The position numbers and the translations under genes were made by a program. From Paludibaculum sp. (lineage in GTDB: Bacteria; Acidobacteriota; Terriglobia; Bryobacterales; Bryobacteraceae), in contig DASXVP010000001.1 of assembly GCA_036504135.1 (NCBI GenBank), positions 26,216 to 90,215 of the forward strand: a stretch of DNA of 64,000 nt, in the 5' to 3' direction. The notes beneath the pieces are model-generated. The model saw nothing but the letters and a program-made list of their open reading frames with translations. It had not been told where the DNA came from and searched no databases. Shown piece by piece: positions 48,387-56,994 of this stretch; positions within the stretch are counted from its first letter, which is position 1; every line of letters begins with the position of its first letter.

Positions 48387-48502
48387 ACTCGGAGCGGGTC
48401 CGAGCTTGGAGTCTGACGGGGACGAGGGCGGCTGTTCGGAGGTCTGGTATGTGCGGGTGACGTCGGAGATGCATCAAGTGCGATCTGTGGCATCATGAGG
48501 AC

Positions 48503-48727
48503 ATGAGGACGACATTGCACATTGATGATGACGCGTACAAGATTGTGGTGCGGTACGCGAAGCTGCGGAAGATCCGGGTGGGGCAAGCGGTCTCGGACCT
48601 GATCGTCCGAGGTTCGCAGGCGGAGGTGCCGGTGAAAGAGATGGGCGGATTGCTCATATTCGATCCGCCGAAGGATTTTCCAAAGATCACGACGGAACAG
48701 GTGAAGCGGTTGGCAGAGGAGTGGTGA
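48503..48727 (+). CDS. type II antitoxin (VapB-like)
   Basis: 74 aa ORF starting MRTTLHIDDDAYKIVVRYAKL.... Its stop overlaps the downstream PIN gene. Confidence 0.7.
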   Translation: MRTTLHIDDDAYKIVVRYAKLRKIRVGQAVSDLIVRGSQAEVPVKEMGGLLIFDPPKDFPKITTEQVKRLAEEW

Positions 48728-48729
48728 GC

Positions 48730-49149
48730 ATGCAGAGCCTGCTAGACGTGAATGTGCTGGTCGCGCTGTTTTGGCCGCAGCACGCGAAGCACCAGGCCGC
48801 GAAGGAGTGGTTTCAGCAACAAGCTGGCGTGCGGGGCGGTTGGGCGACTTGCGCCATCACGCAGGCGGGGTTTGTGCGGGTGCTCTCCAATCCGGTTGTG
48901 AATCAAGGCGCCTTGTCGGTGCTGAGAACGACTTTGATCCTGGAAGAGAATCTGAAGCGGCCGGGGCACAGTCTCTGGTGCATGGACGTGAACTGGCCGG
49001 AGGCGCTGCGATTGTCCGGGGCGGCGATTGACGGATTCCAGCAGGTGACGGACCTGTACCTGATCGGGCTGGCGGTGAAGCACAAGGGGCGACTGGTGAC
49101 ATTTGACCGCGCCTTGGGGAGGCTGAGCGAGAGAGTGGTGGTGATTTAG
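48730..49149 (+). CDS. vapC: PIN-domain toxin VapC
   Basis: MQSLLDVNVLVALFWPQH...VTDLYLIGLAVKHKGRLVTFD. An alternative GTG start lies at 48721. Confidence 0.85.
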   Translation: MQSLLDVNVLVALFWPQHAKHQAAKEWFQQQAGVRGGWATCAITQAGFVRVLSNPVVNQGALSVLRTTLILEENLKRPGHSLWCMDVNWPEALRLSGAAIDGFQQVTDLYLIGLAVKHKGRLVTFDRALGRLSERVVVI

Positions 49150-49155
49150 TTAGCG

Positions 49156-49193
49156 GCCGGACCAGGGGGTCCGGCGCGGACGAGGGCGTCCGC
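49156..49193. terminator. two adjacent GC-rich hairpins sharing an AGGG loop, in a convergent spacer
   Basis: GCCGGACC-AGGG-GGTCCGGC is immediately followed by GCGGACG-AGGG-CGTCCGC. Confidence 0.5.
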
Positions 49194-49248
49194 CCCCCGA
49201 AGAGACTGCGCTAATGGAGGCTGGTTTTGCTGGCTTGCAGGGACTGAG

Positions 49249-52200
49249 TCACTGGAGGCTGATTTTGTTGGCTTCCAGGGTGGTGCCTAGGACGCGTTGG
49301 ACTTGGGCGATGGCTTTGTTCTGGAGGAGGTAGGCGCCTACGAGACGGCGGCGGGAATCTACCAGTTCGTTCTGGCGGGTGAGGACCAGGAAGTTGGTGC
49401 TCTCGCCGGTGGAGAAGAGGCGGATTTCGCTTTCGAGTTTTTCGAGGGAGGCTTTTTCGCTGGCTCGGGCGGCGGTGATGCGCTGGCGGGCGGTCTCTAG
49501 GGCCTGGAGGGCGGTGCGGACCTCGGCGTTGATGCCTTGTTCGAGTTGGAGGCGGGCGAGTTTCAGGCGGCGCTCGTTGATGGCGACCTGATCGAGCTGG
49601 GCCTCGGCCGCGCGGTTGCGGGGGTTCCATTCGATGGCGAGGCCGGCCTGGACGGATTGGGAGCCGAAGCCGAACATATTATTGAGGGCCTGGCCGTAGC
49701 CGCCGATGTAGGACGTGGGGATGGAGCCGCCGCCGATGCTGATGGGGGGAAGCGGAGGCAGGCCGGCCAGGGTGGAGAGATCGTTGACGCGACCGAACAG
49801 CGGGCCGAAGGCGGCGGCGAAACCGCCACTGCTGCTGGATTGCGGCTGGGTGCCGGCGAGTCCGGCGCTGGAGTAGTTGGCTGTGAGATTGACTTGGGGC
49901 TTGGTGGCGCTGCGAGCCAGGTTCTTCTGCACTTCATTCTGCTCGACGCGGAGTTCCAGGGAGCGCAGCTCGGGCCGTTTCTGAATGGCGATGGTGGTGG
50001 CCTCGCGCACGTCCTCGGTGGGGAGATCGGAGGGGCGGCGATCTGTAGGGACCAGACGCTCGTTCCAGAGGGCGTCTTCGCGATCGGGCGTGAGGATGAC
50101 CTTGAGCTGATTTTCAGCAGCGGTGACGAGACCGATGGCGGAGGAGTAGGAATCGATGCGGCGCTGAAGTTCAGCCTCGGAGGCGGACGATTCGATGGGG
50201 GCGAGCGTGCCGGCCGAGATCTGGCGCAGGTTGCGATCATGCTGTTCCTGGGCGAGGCGAACGCCATCGCTGGCGACGACCGCATCTTCGATGGCGGCGG
50301 CGAGATCCCAGTAGGCGCTGACGGCGCGGGTGATGACATCGCTGACGCGGGTCTCGAAATCTGAGCGGGATTGCTGATTCTGCTTCATGCGGATCTTGAG
50401 CGTGGCTCGATCCAGATCCTCCTGGCGGTAGCGCCAGAGGGGGAGCGCGAAGCCGGCAGTGAGGCGCGAGGTGAAGGTGGGGTTGAGGGCGGCGAAGGGG
50501 CTGTTGGTGGAGGTGCGGTTGTTGTCGAAATCGACGTGGAACGACATGCCCTGCCAGGGGGTGCGCTGGCGGAGAGAGACGTTGTTATTGGCGAGATGCT
50601 CGACAAGTTTTCCGTTGGCGCCAGCGAGGGTGTTGGAAACGGGCGTGTTGCGGGTCTCGATGGAGGGGTTGTAGAGCACGACGGCGTCGAAAGAGCCACG
50701 GGCGCCCTGAATGGCCGAGAGGGCGGTGGCCATGTTGGTGCGCTCGACCTCGATTTCGAGGTTGTTCTTGAGGGCCAGTTGCAGGGCCTCGTCGAGGGCG
50801 ATCTTCTTTTCGAGAGCGGTGACGCCGACTCTTTTGGCCTGGGAGACGGACTCGCGCGCCTTGGCCATTTCGGGCGTATCGGGGCGCAGATCCTGGGCTC
50901 GGCCAGGCCACGTGAGGAACAGTCCTAGGAGGAGGAGCGGGACAACGATGGCGTTGACGGTCTTCTTGCGGCGGCCGAGGGGATCGATGATTCTCCTCCA
51001 GCGGGGGGAGTTGGCGAGGTCGTCGAAGATCGAGTAGGCCACGGGCGTGACAAGCAGCGTCAGGATCAGGGCCATGGACTGGCCGCCGATGACGACGATG
51101 GCCACGGTGCGGCGGCTGCCAGCGCCGGCGCCTGTGCCGAAGGCGAGCGGCGACATACCCGCGACAAGCGCGGCTGTGGTCATCAGGATGGGGCGTAGAC
51201 GATCGTCGCAGCCCTGATAGATGGCTTCGAGGCGCGACATGCCCTCCCGGCGCAGGCCCTTGATGTGATCGATCTGAAGAATGGAGTTCTTCTTGACGAT
51301 GCCGAAGAGGACCAGGACGCCGAGCGACGTATAGACGATGGAGAAGTTCTCGCCGACCAGGAAGAGGCTCAGAAGCGCGAAGGGGATGGAGAGCGGGAGG
51401 CTGAGCAGAATGGTGACGGGATCGATGAAGCTCTCATAGTTGGCGGCGAGGATCATGTACATGAACACAACCGAGAGGATGAAGGCGAAGAGGAAGTTCT
51501 GGACGGCGCGGCCGAGTTCCTTGGAGCGGCCGATGGCGCCGTAGCGATAGTCGGGTGGCAGATCCAGCGCCTCCATTTCGGCGGCGGCGATGGTGAGGAG
51601 GTCACCGAGAGCGAGGCCCTTGTTGATGTTGGCGCTGATCATGATGCGCCGCTGGCGGTTCCAGCGGTCGATGGAGGTCGGTCCGGTGCCGGCCGACAAG
51701 GAGGCGACGTTGGCGATGGGCACGTTGCCGAGGGTGCCGGAGGGTACATAGAGGCGCTCGAGAGCGGCGGACGAATTGCGGAAGGGTTTGCTGACACGGA
51801 GCAGAACGTCATAGCGATCGTCACCTTCCTTGTAAGTGGTGACCTGATCGTCGCCACCGACGAGGATGCGCATGGCGTTGGCGACCTGGGCAACGTTGAC
51901 GTTGAGATCGGCTGCCTTGTCGCGATTGATGGTGACGCGCACTTCGGGCTTGCCGGACTCGTAAGACATATCGAGATCGTTGACACCGTTGACTTGGCGC
52001 AGCTTGGCCATGAGGCGGTTGGAATAAACCTCGAGCTTGGCGAGGTCGGGGCCCTGGATGGAGTATTGGAAGTCGCGGTCGGCGGCGCCGCTGATGAGCG
52101 CGGGGAGTTGCACGCCGACGGTGAGGTCCTTGTATTTGGCGAGGCGCTCGCGGGCCATGTCCATGAGCTGGCGCTGTGTCTCTTTGCGATGTTTGACATC

Positions 52201-54042
52201 GACGAGCTCGACGAGCACGGCGGCGCGATCGACCTGGCGGCGCTGATCGGCTCCGATGGTGGTGAGGAGATCGCGGACACCGGGAAGGGTTTTCAGATCA
52301 TTTTCGACCTGGGCGATAACTTCGGTGGTGCCTTCGAGCGAGCTGCCGACGGGCATGCGGACGGAGACTTCGAACTCGCTCTGGTCCTCGACGGGCAGGA
52401 AATCGACGCCCATGTTCTGGACCATAGGGACGGTGGTCATGACGACGAGGATGGAGATGGTGACGATGACCCAGCGGTGGGCCATTGACCATTCGAGCAG
52501 CTTGCGGTAGGGCACGGAGGTGAGCTTGTGGAAGAGGCCGGCCTTGGTGTCTTCAGCCTCTTTGCCGAGCTTGAGGAAGCGCGAGCAGAGCATGGGCGTG
52601 AGGGTGAAGCTGACCAGGAGGGAGACAGCGATGGCGAAGGCTGCGGTGTACCCGAAGCTCGACATGAAGCGGCCGACGATGCCGGGCATGATGGCAATGG
52701 GGATGAAGATGATGATGAGGGAGAGCGTGGTGGCGAGGACGGCGAGACCGATCTCGCGGGTGCCCTCGGCGGCTGCTTCCATCGCGGTCATGTGCTTCTC
52801 TTCCATGTGGCGGAAGATGTTTTCCAGCACGACGATGGCGTCGTCGATCACGATGCCCACCACAAGGGTGAGACCCAACATGGTGATCTGATTGAGCGTG
52901 AAGCCCATCATGTTAAGCAGCGTGAATGTGGAGATGATGGACGTGGGGATGGCGATGGCGGCGATGACGGTGGAGCGCCAATTGCGGATAAAGAGCAGCA
53001 CTATAATACCGGCGAAGACGCCGCCTAGGATGAGGTGCTCCTGGACTGCTTCAAAGGCGGCCTCGATAAAGCCGGACTGATCGCGGGCGTAGGTGATTTC
53101 GAAATCAGGCGGGAGCGAGGACTTGAGCTCGTTGAGACGGTTCTTGACGTTGGCGATGACATCGAGCGAGTTGGTGCCGGCCTGCTTGCGGACGGCGAGG
53201 ACGACGGCGGACTTGCCGTTCAGGCGGGCGGCGGAGCGGGGCTCCTCGTAGCCGTCGACGACCTGGGCGATATCGCCGATGCGGATGGGGGCGCCGTTGA
53301 GGTTGCCGACGACGACGCGTTCAAAATCGATGGGGCGTTCCACGCGGCCGAGCGTACGGAGGGAGAGCTCGCGATGGCCCTGATCGATGCGGCCGCCGGG
53401 GATTTCGATATTCTGGGCGGCGAGGGCGCCGCGAACCTGCTCGATATTGAGATTGTAGGAGTAGAGCTTGTCGCCATCGAGGACGACCTGGATCTGGCGT
53501 TTGCGATCGCCGACGAAGCGGACCTGGCCGACGCCGGCGAGGGACTCGATATTCTTCTTCAGGCGGTCGTCGACGAGCTTGGTAATCTCGCGCAGATCCC
53601 GTTTGGCGGAGACGACGACGTTGAGTACGGGGGCGGCATCGGTGGCCACCTTCTCGACAACGGGCTGCTTGACGTCCTTGGGCAGGGTGCCGAGGACGGT
53701 GGATATCTTGTCACGGACTTCCTGGGCGGCGACCTCGGGGTCCTTTTCCAGCATGAAGCCGATGGTGATGATGGAGATGCCTTCGGCGGAGGTGGAGTTG
53801 AGATCGTCGATGCCGCTGATGGTATTGATGACCTCTTCGAGGGGCTTGGTGACCTGCGATTCCACCTCTTCGGGCGAGGCGCCGGGGAGGACGGTCTGGA
53901 TATTGACGAACGGGAATTCGACTTTAGGGAAGTAGTCGACGCCGAGCTTGCGGTAGCTGGCCAGGCCGATGACGACCAGGGCCAGGATGAGCATGGTGGC
54001 AAAGACGGGGCGGCGGATGCAGAGTTGAGCTAGTTTTTGCAT
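49249..54042 (-). CDS. RND (AcrB-type) efflux permease fused in frame to a TolC-type outer membrane factor
   Basis: Single 1597-codon ORF. The N-terminal ~1015 aa are AcrB-like (MQKLAQLCIRRPVFATMLIL... with 12 TM helices). Then RRKKTVNAIVVPLLLLGLFLTWPGRAQD, then a two-repeat TolC/OEP domain running to ...LGTTLEANKISLQ. Confidence 0.85.
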   Translation of the reverse strand: MQKLAQLCIRRPVFATMLILALVVIGLASYRKLGVDYFPKVEFPFVNIQTVLPGASPEEVESQVTKPLEEVINTISGIDDLNSTSAEGISIITIGFMLEKDPEVAAQEVRDKISTVLGTLPKDVKQPVVEKVATDAAPVLNVVVSAKRDLREITKLVDDRLKKNIESLAGVGQVRFVGDRKRQIQVVLDGDKLYSYNLNIEQVRGALAAQNIEIPGGRIDQGHRELSLRTLGRVERPIDFERVVVGNLNGAPIRIGDIAQVVDGYEEPRSAARLNGKSAVVLAVRKQAGTNSLDVIANVKNRLNELKSSLPPDFEITYARDQSGFIEAAFEAVQEHLILGGVFAGIIVLLFIRNWRSTVIAAIAIPTSIISTFTLLNMMGFTLNQITMLGLTLVVGIVIDDAIVVLENIFRHMEEKHMTAMEAAAEGTREIGLAVLATTLSLIIIFIPIAIMPGIVGRFMSSFGYTAAFAIAVSLLVSFTLTPMLCSRFLKLGKEAEDTKAGLFHKLTSVPYRKLLEWSMAHRWVIVTISILVVMTTVPMVQNMGVDFLPVEDQSEFEVSVRMPVGSSLEGTTEVIAQVENDLKTLPGVRDLLTTIGADQRRQVDRAAVLVELVDVKHRKETQRQLMDMARERLAKYKDLTVGVQLPALISGAADRDFQYSIQGPDLAKLEVYSNRLMAKLRQVNGVNDLDMSYESGKPEVRVTINRDKAADLNVNVAQVANAMRILVGGDDQVTTYKEGDDRYDVLLRVSKPFRNSSAALERLYVPSGTLGNVPIANVASLSAGTGPTSIDRWNRQRRIMISANINKGLALGDLLTIAAAEMEALDLPPDYRYGAIGRSKELGRAVQNFLFAFILSVVFMYMILAANYESFIDPVTILLSLPLSIPFALLSLFLVGENFSIVYTSLGVLVLFGIVKKNSILQIDHIKGLRREGMSRLEAIYQGCDDRLRPILMTTAALVAGMSPLAFGTGAGAGSRRTVAIVVIGGQSMALILTLLVTPVAYSIFDDLANSPRWRRIIDPLGRRKKTVNAIVVPLLLLGLFLTWPGRAQDLRPDTPEMAKARESVSQAKRVGVTALEKKIALDEALQLALKNNLEIEVERTNMATALSAIQGARGSFDAVVLYNPSIETRNTPVSNTLAGANGKLVEHLANNNVSLRQRTPWQGMSFHVDFDNNRTSTNSPFAALNPTFTSRLTAGFALPLWRYRQEDLDRATLKIRMKQNQQSRSDFETRVSDVITRAVSAYWDLAAAIEDAVVASDGVRLAQEQHDRNLRQISAGTLAPIESSASEAELQRRIDSYSSAIGLVTAAENQLKVILTPDREDALWNERLVPTDRRPSDLPTEDVREATTIAIQKRPELRSLELRVEQNEVQKNLARSATKPQVNLTANYSSAGLAGTQPQSSSSGGFAAAFGPLFGRVNDLSTLAGLPPLPPISIGGGSIPTSYIGGYGQALNNMFGFGSQSVQAGLAIEWNPRNRAAEAQLDQVAINERRLKLARLQLEQGINAEVRTALQALETARQRITAARASEKASLEKLESEIRLFSTGESTNFLVLTRQNELVDSRRRLVGAYLLQNKAIAQVQRVLGTTLEANKISLQ

Positions 54043-54059
54043 GGTGTGGGCGCCTTGAA

Positions 54060-55277
54060 CTAGCTGCGGCCCGCCACCTTGACGGGCGCTCCGTTGGTGA
54101 GCAGCGGGATGGAGGAGATGGCGACGGTGGCGCCGGCGGGGATGGTGCCCTCCGGCATTTCGATGAAGCCGTTGGCGCCGAGAATCTCGGGCACCTTATG
54201 CTCGACGGCCTTGCCGTTTTCGATGGTGAAGAACTTGTTGAGGCCGGCTACGGTGTAGACGGCGGCACGGGGCACGGCGACAACGGCGAATGCCTTGTTG
54301 GTGACGAGGCGAACCTGGACGAACGAGCCGGGCTTGAGGCGGGCGTCGTTGGTGAGCAGGCGGGCTTCGGCGGTGAGAGTGCGGTTGCGATTATCTAGCG
54401 ACGGATTCAACTCGCGTACGACCGCCTGGAACTGGGCATTGGGGACGGCCTCGGTGGTGAAGACCAGGGTGGTGCCGATCTTGACGTCGGCGACGACGGA
54501 TTCGGGGACATCCGCGCGGAGGCGCAACGGGTAGGCTTTGACGATGGTGTAGATCGGCACGTTTTCCTTGATGTACTGGCCGGGGGAGACGTGCTTGACC
54601 TGGACGATGCCATCGAAGGGGGCGAGGACGGAGGCGTCTTTGAGGCGTTTTTCGGCGAGCTTAACGTCGGCCTTGAGCTGGCGGATGACGGCGAGCTGGG
54701 TGCGGAGGTCGTCCTGAGTGGCTTCGACGGCGGCGAGACGGGCGCGGTAGAGCTTATCGAGCTCGTTGAATCGCTCCTGGCTGATGTCGCCGGTCTTGAT
54801 GAGCTTGGCGGCGTTATCGTACTTGGACTTCGCGTCCTCCATCTGGGCCTTGGCCTGGCGCATCATGGCGGTGGAGCCGGGGGTAGCTTCCTGGCCGGGG
54901 TCCATGCCGACGCGGGCGAGAGCCTGGGCGAGGGTGGCGCGGGAGCGCTCAACCTGGAGGGCGAGCTCTTGAGTATCGAGCTCGGCGACGATCTCGCCTT
55001 TGCGGACGAACTGGCCGAAATCGGCAGCGAGGGTGGTGATGCGACCGGGCACCTCGGAGCTGACGGTGGTGGTCTCATCGGGCTGGAGCGAGCCGGTGAC
55101 CATGATGGAGCGCTCCACCGTGCGGGCCTCAGAGAGCGCGGTCTTGACGGAGATGGGCTCCGGCGGGCGGGCGGCGGCGGCTTTGGCAGCGGCCTGGGCG
55201 GCTGCTTCTTTGTTTCCGCAGCCGGCGAGGAGAAAGGCGGTCAGGACCAGCAGGAGAAGGGCTATGGATCGGTGCAT
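54060..55277 (-). CDS. RND efflux periplasmic adaptor subunit (lipoprotein)
   Basis: Start at MHRSIALLLLVLTAFLLAGCGNKE (lipobox). HlyD_D23-like coiled coil and beta-barrel. Confidence 0.9.
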   Translation of the reverse strand: MHRSIALLLLVLTAFLLAGCGNKEAAAQAAAKAAAARPPEPISVKTALSEARTVERSIMVTGSLQPDETTTVSSEVPGRITTLAADFGQFVRKGEIVAELDTQELALQVERSRATLAQALARVGMDPGQEATPGSTAMMRQAKAQMEDAKSKYDNAAKLIKTGDISQERFNELDKLYRARLAAVEATQDDLRTQLAVIRQLKADVKLAEKRLKDASVLAPFDGIVQVKHVSPGQYIKENVPIYTIVKAYPLRLRADVPESVVADVKIGTTLVFTTEAVPNAQFQAVVRELNPSLDNRNRTLTAEARLLTNDARLKPGSFVQVRLVTNKAFAVVAVPRAAVYTVAGLNKFFTIENGKAVEHKVPEILGANGFIEMPEGTIPAGATVAISSIPLLTNGAPVKVAGRS

Positions 55278-55282
55278 GGTAA

Positions 55283-55957
55283 TTAGCGAGCTCCAGGTTT
55301 GGAATCCGGACAGATTCCGTTTAGAAAGATGTCTACAAACTGACTTACGACTTCCTCGCGGGAAAGTTCCGATGCAGGGCGTTGATATATGGCGCTGACC
55401 TGGCCGTATTGGCACATCATGCCGAGAAAGGCGCGGGCGATGATGACATGATTCTGACCCTTGAATGCGCCCTCAGCCATGCGGCGTTGGACGTACTCTT
55501 CCAGGACCTGAATGAACTGGACGGTGCAGCGGTTGTACCAGATGTCGGCGAGGTCGTGGCCCTCGAGGGCGCTGAAGAGGAGTAGCCGGATGTGATTGGT
55601 TTCGTCGAGGTACCAGTTGACCACTTCGAGGCCGAACCATTGGAAGAAAGAGCGATCGTCGGAGGTGCCGTGAAACTGGCAGAGAGCGGCGTCACCCACG
55701 GCGGCGCGTTCCCCTACCATTTGATCGACAATGGCAGTGTAAAGGTCCCGTTTGGTGGCAAAGTGCTGATAGAGAACGGGTTCGCTGACACCGACGGCGA
55801 GAGCAAGCTCGCGGGTGGTGGTGCCGCGGAAGCCGCGTTTGGCGAAGAGATCGATGGCGGTGCGGACAATGGCGGCCCGCCGCTCCACACTGGAGAGGCG
55901 CTGGCGGGCGGGAGCGGCTTCCCCGCCGGAACTAGCATCCACTAACATAGTATTCAC
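55283..55957 (-). CDS. TetR/AcrR family transcriptional regulator
   Basis: HTH segment FRGTTTRELALAVGVSEPVLYQHF. GTG at 55957 or ATG at 55948. Confidence 0.9.
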   Translation of the reverse strand: MNTMLVDASSGGEAAPARQRLSSVERRAAIVRTAIDLFAKRGFRGTTTRELALAVGVSEPVLYQHFATKRDLYTAIVDQMVGERAAVGDAALCQFHGTSDDRSFFQWFGLEVVNWYLDETNHIRLLLFSALEGHDLADIWYNRCTVQFIQVLEEYVQRRMAEGAFKGQNHVIIARAFLGMMCQYGQVSAIYQRPASELSREEVVSQFVDIFLNGICPDSKPGAR

Positions 55958-55958
55958 T

Positions 55959-55988
55959 AATGTAGCAGGACCAGCTGGGATTGGTCAA
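55959..55988 (-). promoter_or_regulatory. candidate sigma-70 promoter of the tetR-MFP-RND operon
   Basis: Minus strand reads TTGACC-18 nt-TACATT. The -10 ends 1 nt before the GTG, which would favour the ATG at 55948 on a very short leader. Confidence 0.3.
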
Positions 55989-56178
55989 TCACCGAGGCGG
56001 CGGGCAGCCATTGGGCTCATCTTGTTTGCAGTGCCCGCGGGTGGTGGATTCCATTGGCGACAGTCTATGCGCGGCGTACCGCCGTGGGGCGCAGTTGCGG
56101 GGCCAGGCGCAATCGGTTTGGGGCTCTGCGCCGATGGAGCGGCCGGCGGCGGTGGTGGTGGATGGGCGCGCGGCCGGC

Positions 56179-56994
56179 TCAGCCGGCGTAGAGGGTCATG
56201 CCGCCGTCGACACGGATGATCTGGCCGTTGACGAAGCGGGCGGCGGGGCCGGCGAGGAAGGCGACGACATCGGCGATCTCGGCCGGATCACCGTAGCGAT
56301 TGAGGGAGGCGCCGGCATCCATCATGGCGGGATCGACTTTGCGGGTGGCGACGAAGCGGGCGGTTTTGGTGGGGCCGGGGCTGACGGCGTTGACTCTGAC
56401 GCCCTGGGTGCGGAGCTCAGCGGCAAGGCAGCGGGTGTAGTGGACGACGGCGGCTTTGAGGGTGGAGTAGACGACCTCGGGCGAGGTGCCGAAGTGGGCG
56501 GCGGCGGAGGCGATGTTGATGACGGCGCCGCCGCCGGCGGCGATCATGGCGGGGCAGAAGGCCTGGCACATCAGCATTGTGCCGATGAGGTTGTTGTTGA
56601 TGAGCGTCTGGATATCGAGGAGGGAGATATCAAGGGCGTTGTTGGGATTGGGCTTGCCTCCCTGGGCACCGATGTCGCCGCCGGCGCAGTTTACGAGCAC
56701 GTTCACGGGGCCGAGCTTGGCGGTGATCTCTTCGGCCATGCGGCGGACGGCGGCCTGATCGCCGATATTGCCGGTGACGGCCATGGTGCGGGTGCCGTAG
56801 CGCTCCAGTTCTTTGGCGACGGCGCCGAGATCGGGGGCCTCGCCGTATTTGGCGGGGGCGTTCCGATCGAGGTCATGGATGATGACGTCGGCTCCGAGTT
56901 CGGCGAGGCGTTCGGCGATGGCGCGGCCGAGACCGCGGCCGGAGCCGGTGACGAAGGCGACTTTTCCGGACAGGGGGGGATTCACATTGCTCAT
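56179..56994 (-). CDS. SDR family oxidoreductase
   Basis: TGSGRGLGRAIA glycine motif and YSTLKAAV catalytic YxxxK. Confidence 0.92.
   Translation of the reverse strand: MSNVNPPLSGKVAFVTGSGRGLGRAIAERLAELGADVIIHDLDRNAPAKYGEAPDLGAVAKELERYGTRTMAVTGNIGDQAAVRRMAEEITAKLGPVNVLVNCAGGDIGAQGGKPNPNNALDISLLDIQTLINNNLIGTMLMCQAFCPAMIAAGGGAVINIASAAAHFGTSPEVVYSTLKAAVVHYTRCLAAELRTQGVRVNAVSPGPTKTARFVATRKVDPAMMDAGASLNRYGDPAEIADVVAFLAGPAARFVNGQIIRVDGGMTLYAG

Follow-up and report, generated by a model that had tools for sequence, protein, structure and literature searches.

In a 64,000-nucleotide (nt) stretch of a Paludibaculum sp. genome (contig DASXVP010000001.1 of assembly GCA_036504135.1; hereafter the window), a single open reading frame (ORF) on the minus strand (49249..54042) encodes an inner-membrane permease of the resistance-nodulation-division (RND) type and a TolC-like outer-membrane factor (OMF) as one polypeptide. 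The fusion is genuine, it is common in Acidobacteriota and it has arisen repeatedly. In our judgement its product is probably a polyprotein from which signal peptidase I, cutting at A1049|Q1050, would release two subunits of a tripartite RND pump; we infer that the OMF moiety is exported by the Sec pathway, cleaved and assembled in the outer membrane.

One reading frame joins an RND permease to an outer-membrane factor

The ORF listing and the translation agree on one uninterrupted frame of 1597 codons and a stop, with an ATG start and without internal stop codons. The original prediction had claimed that no stop separates an AcrB-like from a TolC-like part, and this is confirmed; the junction peptide given there is reproduced letter by letter in the translation (...PVAYSIFDDLANSPRWRRIIDPLGRRKKTVNAIVVPLLLLGLFLTWPGRAQDLRPDTPEMAKARE...; over a longer stretch, ...TPVAYSIFDDLANSPRWRRIIDPLGRRKKTVNAIVVPLLLLGLFLTWPGRAQDLRPDTPEMAKARESVSQAKRVGVT...). 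A protein search retrieved the same sequence as HEY3439163.1 ('MAG TPA: Paludibaculum sp.'). The designation of the ORF as an RND permease::OMF fusion precursor rests on its listing, its translation, Pfam and the homologue search.

Pfam matched ACR_tran to residues 5-1006 (E 8e-276) and OEP, in two stretches, up to residue 1586 (E 1.5e-20). ACR_tran (PF00873) scored 918 bits against a cut-off of 28, with profile positions 2-1020 of 1021 matched, and OEP (PF02321) scored 74.3 bits against a cut-off of 22. Among the NCBIfam models, those of RND permeases covered residues 4-1016, and weak TolC/NodT matches fell in the C-terminal part. Since RND_permease_2 (842 vs. a cut-off of 1250) and TIGR00915 (586 vs. 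940) both scored under their cut-offs, the protein is an RND permease that lies outside those curated subfamilies.

The RND moiety (HAE1-type; residues 1-1008; 51019..54042, minus strand) was delimited by ACR_tran, hydropathy and AlphaFold2 (AF2). Hydropathy and the AF2 secondary structure gave 12 transmembrane (TM) helices and two large periplasmic loops in a 1+6+1+... pattern, and in the AF2 model of residues 1-1049 (mean predicted local distance difference test, pLDDT, 76.5) TM and periplasmic elements alternate as expected. The motifs DD (400/401, in TM4), KK (917/918, in TM10) and RLRP (948-951, in TM11, with R948 and R950) are invariant in 50 homologues; by motif comparison we take D400/D401, K917/K918 and R948/R950 to be the counterparts of the AcrB proton-relay residues D407/D408/K940/R971. 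The moiety ends with a conserved ...PVAYSIFDD that follows TM12. An RND permease usually terminates in the cytoplasm soon after TM12, but here 591 further residues lie beyond the FDD motif.

These residues include the predicted mature OMF, a TolC-like channel protomer (residues 1050-1597; 49252..50895, minus strand) recognized by the two OEP stretches, AF2 and Foldseek. The AF2 model of residues 1006-1597 (592 residues, 50 homologues) had a mean pLDDT of 86.2 and a predicted template-modelling score (pTM) of 0.73. In its numbering, residues 8-38 (linker and core, see below) form a low-confidence helix, residues 40-47 (the proposed cut site) are disordered, and the remainder consists of long helical hairpins and beta-strands, as in TolC. 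The mature OMF begins with a clade-specific short helix, then a conserved RVGV strand that precedes the first TolC-type helix. In the PDB, Foldseek matched TolC, ST50, OprM, CmeC, OprN, CusC, MtrE and VceC, each at probability 1.00; TM-scores normalised to the target were 0.65-0.74 (E-values of 1e-14 to 1e-17 for the first six). A profile search against solved structures gave only weak matches to OprM, CmeC and TolC (best E 3e-10), and the scores were far under the cut-offs of TIGR01844 (40 vs. 225) and TIGR01845 NodT (25 vs. 210). The weak sequence similarity to solved OMFs points to a divergent and longer OMF subfamily of about 550 residues. An OMF is usually translated independently with an N-terminal Sec or lipoprotein signal; in the window protein a segment that resembles such a signal (residues 1009-1049) lies inside the polypeptide. 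This moiety, modelled as a monomer, would be expected to form trimers in the outer membrane and to dock to the adaptor.

Within the OMF model, the first repeat contains four predicted beta-strands (model residues 116-196; fusion residues 1121-1201), and the second contains two (model 378-392 and 457-466; fusion residues 1383-1471) that flank a ~60-residue low-confidence insertion with a helix; these features map approximately to window positions 49660-50680. TolC has two strands per repeat. On the model, the barrel of this OMF subfamily, whether fused or free, may be unusual, or the subfamily may carry an extracellular cap.

The fusion is widespread in Acidobacteriota

A search of 5.8 billion proteins placed the window protein in a family, A, of at least 120 clusters with 58-100% identity, 99-100% coverage, lengths of 1557-1629 residues and both Pfam domains, under the names Paludibaculum, Bryobacteraceae, Bryobacterales and Acidobacteriota. 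Two cultured Paludibaculum fermentans strains carry the fusion; in one it is WP_194448647.1/QOY86978.1 of the complete 9.48-Mb isolate genome CP063849.1 (the second strain is locus L007), and a Logan assembly made independently from reads contains this ORF as well. Family B (at least 120 clusters, 1522-1635 residues) was found in Candidatus Solibacter, Sulfopaludibacter, 'Acidoferrales' and Bryobacteraceae; one of its members, Q025G5 in UniProt, comes from Solibacter usitatus Ellin6076 and bears the annotation 'Acriflavin resistance protein'. Family C, mostly of about 1600-1720 residues with a few members up to about 1810, belongs to Blastocatellales and Pyrinomonadaceae (Blastocatellia). Families B and C show 47-48% identity over the full length, and in that lineage the fusion may therefore be an ancient one.

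The junction resembles a Sec signal peptide in an internal position

Three elements lie between the FDD motif and the mature OMF, all on the minus strand: (i) a linker, predicted from the translation to be cytoplasmic (residues 1009-1027, LANSPRWRRIIDPLGRRKK; 50962..51018), with seven K/R and one D, equivalent to an n-region; (ii) a hydrophobic core (residues 1028-1045, TVNAIVVPLLLLGLFLTW; 50908..50961), by its hydropathy an internal h-region or a 13th TM helix in N-in/C-out orientation; and (iii) a c-region, P-G-R-A (50896..50907), ending at a predicted signal peptidase I site, A1049/Q1050, placed by the alignment column 'AQ'. Residues at this site are Gly at -3, Ala at -1 and Gln at +1 (G-R-A|Q). 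The best 12-residue window of the core has a mean Kyte-Doolittle value of 3.04, and in the hydropathy profile of the full protein the segment forms an extra peak beyond the hydrophobic segments of the RND itself. AF2 predicted a core helix at low confidence (pLDDT ~60 or below) both without and with the RND moiety.

The n-region, the h-region and the small residues at -3 and -1 are those of a Sec-type signal, but their place is not N-terminal: the segment begins 1008 residues into the polypeptide. The OMF moiety has neither a Cys nor a lipobox past the core and is not a lipoprotein. The C-terminus of AcrB is cytoplasmic; such a C-terminus, a K/R-rich linker and an N-in/C-out core together provide the topology needed for exporting a downstream part.

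Among the 120 family A homologues listed, 119 have a K/R-rich linker, a hydrophobic core and a short c-region between FDD and RVGV. The linker has a median of 24 residues with five K/R and no D/E (net charge +3 to +8), the hydrophobic 12-mer has a median Kyte-Doolittle value of 2.67, and the c-region ends mostly in A, G or S ahead of Gln, followed by the conserved RVGV start of the channel. A second scan found the n/h/c anatomy in all 240 fused homologues examined from families A and B, and it was also present in 83 members of family C. Median K/R and D/E counts of the linker were 6 and 1 in family B, where an Ala/Ser-rich core ends ...SLFGQ|T, and 8 and 0 in family C, where the core ends ...A-x-A|Q. 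In a crude, rule-based scan for cleavage sites (not SignalP), position -1 was always A, G or S and position +1 mostly Q or A, matching the N-terminal signals of the two-gene relatives described below. The core sequence drifts among the homologues of the junction alignment while its hydrophobicity stays, and drifting residues under a persistent pattern are typical of signal peptides. The Sec anatomy of the fused homologues examined is in line with the earlier description of the junction as a positive stretch, a hydrophobic core and an AxA-like motif that make an internal signal peptide or a 13th TM helix.

Fused and two-gene operons interconvert

Related operons were collected from one genome per GTDB species, which gave 80 loci labelled Bryobacterales, Solibacter or Acidobacteriota, except for two labelled Arcobacter. 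Five loci with frameshifts inside the RND, two incomplete ones and L001 were left out, and a locus was counted as fused only if RND and OMF were in the same frame. The 72 clean loci comprise 48 fused and 24 two-gene operons. The possibility that orthologues are always two genes with a normal start and signal peptide thus applies to about one third of the loci and fails for the other two thirds. The TetR-adaptor-RND-OMF synteny holds almost throughout wherever the flanks are present; L070 shows the OMF alone.

Locus L001 (JADKID010000012.1), whose product is 97% identical to the window protein, has a single-base deletion (L001:6060-6080) that puts RND and OMF in different frames, and in the NCBI annotation its OMF is a 539-residue 'TolC family protein' (MBL0158136.1) that lacks a signal peptide. 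The alignment gave no other sign of decay, and the deletion is probably an assembly error because L001 comes from a long-read 'tig' assembly. The two metagenome-assembled genomes (MAGs) labelled 'Arcobacter sp.', L018 (CAYWJB010000034.1) and L025 (DYJN01000006.1), carry a Bryobacterales-type operon, TetR, membrane fusion protein and RND::OMF, that nests among Bryobacteraceae in the tree described below; their labels look like mis-binning or mislabelling in public records.

Two-gene operons of Bryobacterales (e.g., L044 on chromosome OY764903.1; L051, L037, L021) share with the window the synteny, the RND and OMF subfamilies (50-57% OMF identity) and, at the homologous position, a signal peptide that ends in A, G or S before Q and is followed by RVGV. 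They differ from the fusion in a stop codon, often in the form ...G-D-stop, and an ATG close behind it. In the 21 two-gene loci with a placed OMF start, the RND stops 24-37 residues past FDD, and the gap to the OMF ATG is 3-13 nt in 17 of them and -4 (an overlap), 30, 38 and 48 nt in the others. These OMFs have an ordinary N-terminal signal peptide (e.g., MRVLLLSALVMCVHGQ|TSPPRVGVG). With the C-terminal part as query, an exhaustive HMMER search found as nearest relatives stand-alone OMFs that are 520-570 residues long with 42-48% identity; their signal peptides end a few residues ahead of RVGV (e.g., MIRSLLILAVPVLLAQMLVAQ-PATVAPRVGVG). The junction of the fused protein thus coincides with the N-terminal signal peptide of the two-gene channels, which supports its reading as a signal peptide.

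Fused and two-gene signals are not identical. The median number of K/R before the core is five in fused family A and one in the two-gene relatives, and the uncharged h+c stretch has a median of 18 vs. 13 residues (Mann-Whitney p = 1.4e-7). More K/R and a longer h+c stretch are to be expected of a segment that has to function while joined to TM12.

A neighbour-joining tree of concatenated RND and OMF sequences (45 fused and 21 split members) requires 9-10 state changes by Fitch parsimony, and 8-10 in 100 of 100 bootstrap trees, when compared to a mean of 17.9 and a minimum of 12 with shuffled fused/split labels. Large clades are uniformly fused, including that of the window (RND identity down to about 77%, OMF about 58%). 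Interconversion of the two states without operon loss is expected if both forms yield a free OMF, and the repeated origin and long retention of the fusion are arguments that a functional OMF comes from the fused gene.

The RND tails of 13 two-gene loci (L029, L030, L032, L035, L037, L051, L054, L056, L067-L069, L076 and L078) end ...G-D-stop, encoded by GGAGAT followed by TGA or TAA. GGAGAT, the last two RND codons, also serves the OMF gene as its Shine-Dalgarno (SD) sequence; the OMF start lies 3-13 nt further on. With so tight a coupling, a small indel easily makes a fusion. In five other two-gene loci (L021, L026, L027, L028 and L048) the RND tails end ...RRALGAITGLVR-stop, which resembles the fused linker and the beginning of the core, and a second, complete signal peptide follows in their OMF genes. 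These sequences hint that some split genes derive from fused ancestors by fission, and not the reverse.

Proposed processing of the precursor

The following steps are proposed. The RND moiety would be inserted co-translationally in the inner membrane with 12 TM helices and, as in AcrB, a cytoplasmic C-terminal tail. The K/R-rich linker would be kept in the cytoplasm according to the positive-inside rule, and the hydrophobic core, serving as an internal signal, would insert into the Sec translocon in N-in/C-out orientation, so that the roughly 550-residue OMF is threaded into the periplasm. Signal peptidase I would then cut after the small-x-small site (G-R-A1049|Q1050), the freed OMF would trimerise into a TolC-like outer-membrane channel, and the signal would stay on the RND subunit as its 13th helix. 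Together with the lipoprotein adaptor of the gene just upstream, two structural genes would yield a complete pump, and RND and OMF would be made 1:1, as they are used in the 3:6:3 complex. This accords with the original prediction, in which OMF export appears to depend on the fusion and is presumably followed by signal-peptidase cleavage; wherever that reading could be checked by computation, it was borne out.

Several points weigh against this proposal. The processing is predicted from sequence, and the cleavage sites were called with a crude rule. At these sites position -3 is often Leu, a residue less usual for signal peptidase I, and the h+c stretch of family A (median 18) is long enough for a stable TM anchor. 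An SD-like sequence, GGAGGAGA, lies in the linker 3-6 nt ahead of two ATC codons, where L003 has an ATG, so that some internal initiation is possible.

Alternative readings of the fusion

In one alternative the OMF is made mainly by internal initiation in the linker, at a non-canonical or occasionally a canonical codon, yielding a pre-OMF with an N-terminal signal, and the fusion is a minor or irrelevant by-product of a lost stop. We regard this as unlikely. The original prediction had noted that no in-frame ATG, GTG or TTG precedes the hydrophobic segment and that the first internal ATG lies beyond it. A start-codon scan agreed on both: none of the three codons occurs in frame between F1006 and the core of the window gene, and the first Met past the core is M1059 (PEMAKARE). 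Among the fused relatives, 44 of 51 loci (those counted as fused at this stage; 48 were clean after refinement) have some in-frame ATG, GTG or TTG ahead of the core, which is unsurprising since GTG is a usual Val codon in these GC-rich genomes. A canonical start is absent from the other seven as well as from the window, and candidate positions are not conserved.

The sequence GGAGGAGA (50992..50999, minus strand; whole site 50986-50999, including ATC ATC) speaks for internal initiation. It uses the only AGG codon and one of the two AGA codons among the 117 Arg codons of the ORF (CGC 99, CGT 8, CGG 4, CGA 3, AGA 2, AGG 1), and a start directly behind it would give a textbook signal, M/I-IDPLGRRKK-TVNAIVVPLLLLGLFLTW-PGRA|Q. 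The two-gene relatives start their OMF a few nt from the RND stop, and such coupling signals may persist. However, an SD-like motif stands at candidate starts in 2 of the 51 fused loci vs. 10 of the 21 true OMF starts, and GGAGGAGA is missing from the closest relatives of the window (L001-L003), for which reason it was rejected as a conserved internal ribosome-binding site. Furthermore, a linker with 5-8 K/R and purged of acidic residues, and a longer h+c stretch, make sense only if the segment works attached to TM12. From its sequence and codon usage, GGAGGAGA is possibly the remnant of an ancestral OMF ribosome-binding site and start codon; alternatively, it may be a weak internal initiation or pause site.

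Quite unlikely, in our view, is a permanent 13th TM helix from which an uncleaved OMF stays tethered, either as a covalent two-membrane machine or in a periplasmic, non-canonical use of the OMF fold. The core and c-region of family A (median 18 uncharged residues) can span a bilayer, AF2 predicts a helix for the core, and the cleavage is itself a prediction. In the AF2 model of residues 1-1049 this helix has a pLDDT of 41-57 and is not confidently packed on the RND bundle, of which it is therefore not predicted to form an integral part; the model is uninformative on its location.

The tether argues against this arrangement. From the predicted cut to the RVGV strand it has a median of 11 residues and a minimum of 2, with at most 10 in 54 of 120 family A members, and from the core to the first strand it spans 2-39 residues. 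In known structures of the TolC fold this end of the protein belongs to the equatorial domain, a long way from the inner membrane; in assembled AcrAB-TolC the distance between the two, estimated from published structures, is about 150 Å. Such a tether is too short for an uncleaved protein to reach the equatorial domain of an outer-membrane trimer. In addition, the OMF moiety keeps the full TolC fold with its beta-barrel strands, it has interconverted at least eight times with ordinary secreted OMF genes, and it retains past the core a small-x-small motif followed by Gln, as free OMFs do. The cores of family B are rich in Ala, Ser and Thr (mean Kyte-Doolittle value 2.0, h+c 14) and resemble signal peptides rather than anchors.

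It is hardly credible, and was rejected, that two genes lost the stop or start between them through faulty sequencing or assembly, or through a recent inactivating mutation. The window protein does come from a MAG, L001 as its closest relative lacks 1 nt of an AAGAAGA run at the junction in a long-read assembly, and several other MAG loci show multiple frameshifts. But hundreds of independent fused clusters in three families (at least 120 in family A), species-representative loci, complete genomes of cultured isolates and an independent read assembly have the fusion. Across 58-100% identity the RND and OMF moieties stay in frame and their functional residues are invariant, and whole clades are uniformly fused.

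The fusion gene lies in a TetR-regulated operon

The genes upstream of the fusion, all on the minus strand, have the order TetR-adaptor-fusion. The first operon gene (55283..55957) encodes a TetR-family regulator of 224 residues (Pfam TetR_N, E 6.6e-15, and TetR_C_7) that is conserved at the same position in almost all related loci in which the upstream flank is present. The second (54060..55277) encodes a periplasmic adaptor, or membrane fusion protein (HlyD_D23, E 3.3e-27; TIGR01730 RND_mfp, 171.8 bits vs. a cut-off of 94.9). Its mechanically called ORF starts with GTG at 55415 and overlaps the TetR gene by 133 nt. The true start is most likely M47 of this long ORF, an ATG at 55277, 5 nt past the TetR stop; translation from M47 gives a lipoprotein signal, MHRSIALLLLVLTAFLLAGC, with the lipobox LLAGC, and the adaptor orthologue of P. 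fermentans has 400 residues and starts 4 nt past TetR. The operon order and the Pfam and TIGR matches for adaptor and regulator support the original proposal of a tripartite pump made from two structural genes.

A promoter scan of positions 48500-56500 found a single promoter-like match, a sigma-70-like candidate (TTGACC-18-TACATT with TG; 55959..55988, minus strand) upstream of the TetR gene; the number of matches was no higher than in shuffled sequences, and the candidate is weak evidence. The same scan found no internal promoter near the junction, and no minus-strand terminator was found near it.

Relation to known systems

Functionally, the system is an ordinary TetR-regulated tripartite RND pump; what is new is that RND and OMF are covalently joined in one precursor, RND::OMF, which carries a signal peptide within it. 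As in the canonical pumps AcrAB-TolC, MexAB-OprM and CmeABC, there are three components, arranged in the mexAB-oprM-type order of regulator, adaptor, RND and OMF, and the window operon encodes ACR_tran with its proton-relay residues, a TolC/OprM fold and a lipoprotein adaptor with HlyD-type domains. Unlike in those pumps, RND and OMF form one polypeptide, the OMF signal is internal behind a 20-30-residue polybasic linker, the RND would keep a 13th helix if cleaved, and the OMF is divergent, longer and not a lipoprotein. We know of no pump that encodes its RND and OMF subunits together.

The original prediction was aware of no description of the architecture. In the full-text literature searched, no description of a natural RND-OMF fusion was found (the architecture pages of InterPro, TCDB and UniProt lay outside the search), but public databases have contained such proteins under generic names since 2006 (Q025G5). 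Annotated only as 'RND permease', the fusion has gone unnoticed there.

The closest parallel in processing known to us is the cytochrome b/c1 precursor FbcH of Bradyrhizobium japonicum, reportedly described by Thony-Meyer and co-workers in 1991 and said to be cleaved into two subunits. In both proteins a polytopic part ending in the cytoplasm (by homology to AcrB in the window protein) is followed by an internal signal and a partner subunit of the same complex, which in FbcH faces the periplasm. The protein families differ, the cytochrome c1 of FbcH is said to stay in the inner membrane whereas the OMF released from the fusion would have to cross the periplasm and be built into the outer membrane, and cleavage, reportedly demonstrated for FbcH, is deduced for RND::OMF.

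SecDF of Thermus thermophilus is a member of the RND superfamily in fused form (PDB 3AQP; PMC8277102). Like RND and OMF, the SecDF subunits are separate in many bacteria and one polypeptide in some lineages, fused and split states being interchangeable in evolution. In contrast to RND and OMF, which must part, both are inner-membrane halves of one pseudo-symmetric transporter and stay joined. Covalent linkage that enforces stoichiometry is also found in engineered fusions, such as AcrA-AcrB, which stabilise AcrAB-TolC for cryo-EM. These are artificial and uncleaved and join inner-membrane and periplasmic partners; none is known to link RND to OMF.

Implications

If the precursor is processed as proposed, proteins of this kind expose an annotation gap, since hundreds of sequences of 1550-1800 residues are labelled only 'efflux RND transporter permease'. 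The label covers the RND alone, so that the OMF is missed in censuses of channels and efflux systems of Acidobacteriota, which are among the most abundant soil phyla. The fusion would then also confirm, in Rosetta-stone fashion, that RND and OMF are cognate partners in this divergent OMF subfamily.

It may well be, on evidence that we judge evenly balanced, that (i) Acidobacteriota routinely make an RND pump and its outer-membrane channel as one precursor, in which an embedded Sec signal exports the channel co-translationally and signal peptidase separates the two; (ii) this is the first natural polyprotein with products in both membranes of a diderm; and (iii) the arrangement, with its retained 13th helix, evolved repeatedly, with at least eight switches in one family and with three families in two classes. 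If the proposed processing is correct, it would be a natural case of an outer-membrane beta-barrel protein delivered by an internal signal on a polytopic inner-membrane protein, and OMF export would be co-translational and spatially coupled to the RND partner. The 13th RND helix would be retained, with a possible function. The dozens of fused/split pairs, in which K/R rise from 1 to 5 and h+c from 13 to 18 residues, would amount to a natural experiment on how cleavable signals differ from TM anchors, and the family would offer a tractable model of how tripartite pumps find their outer-membrane partner and fix a 1:1 RND:OMF stoichiometry.

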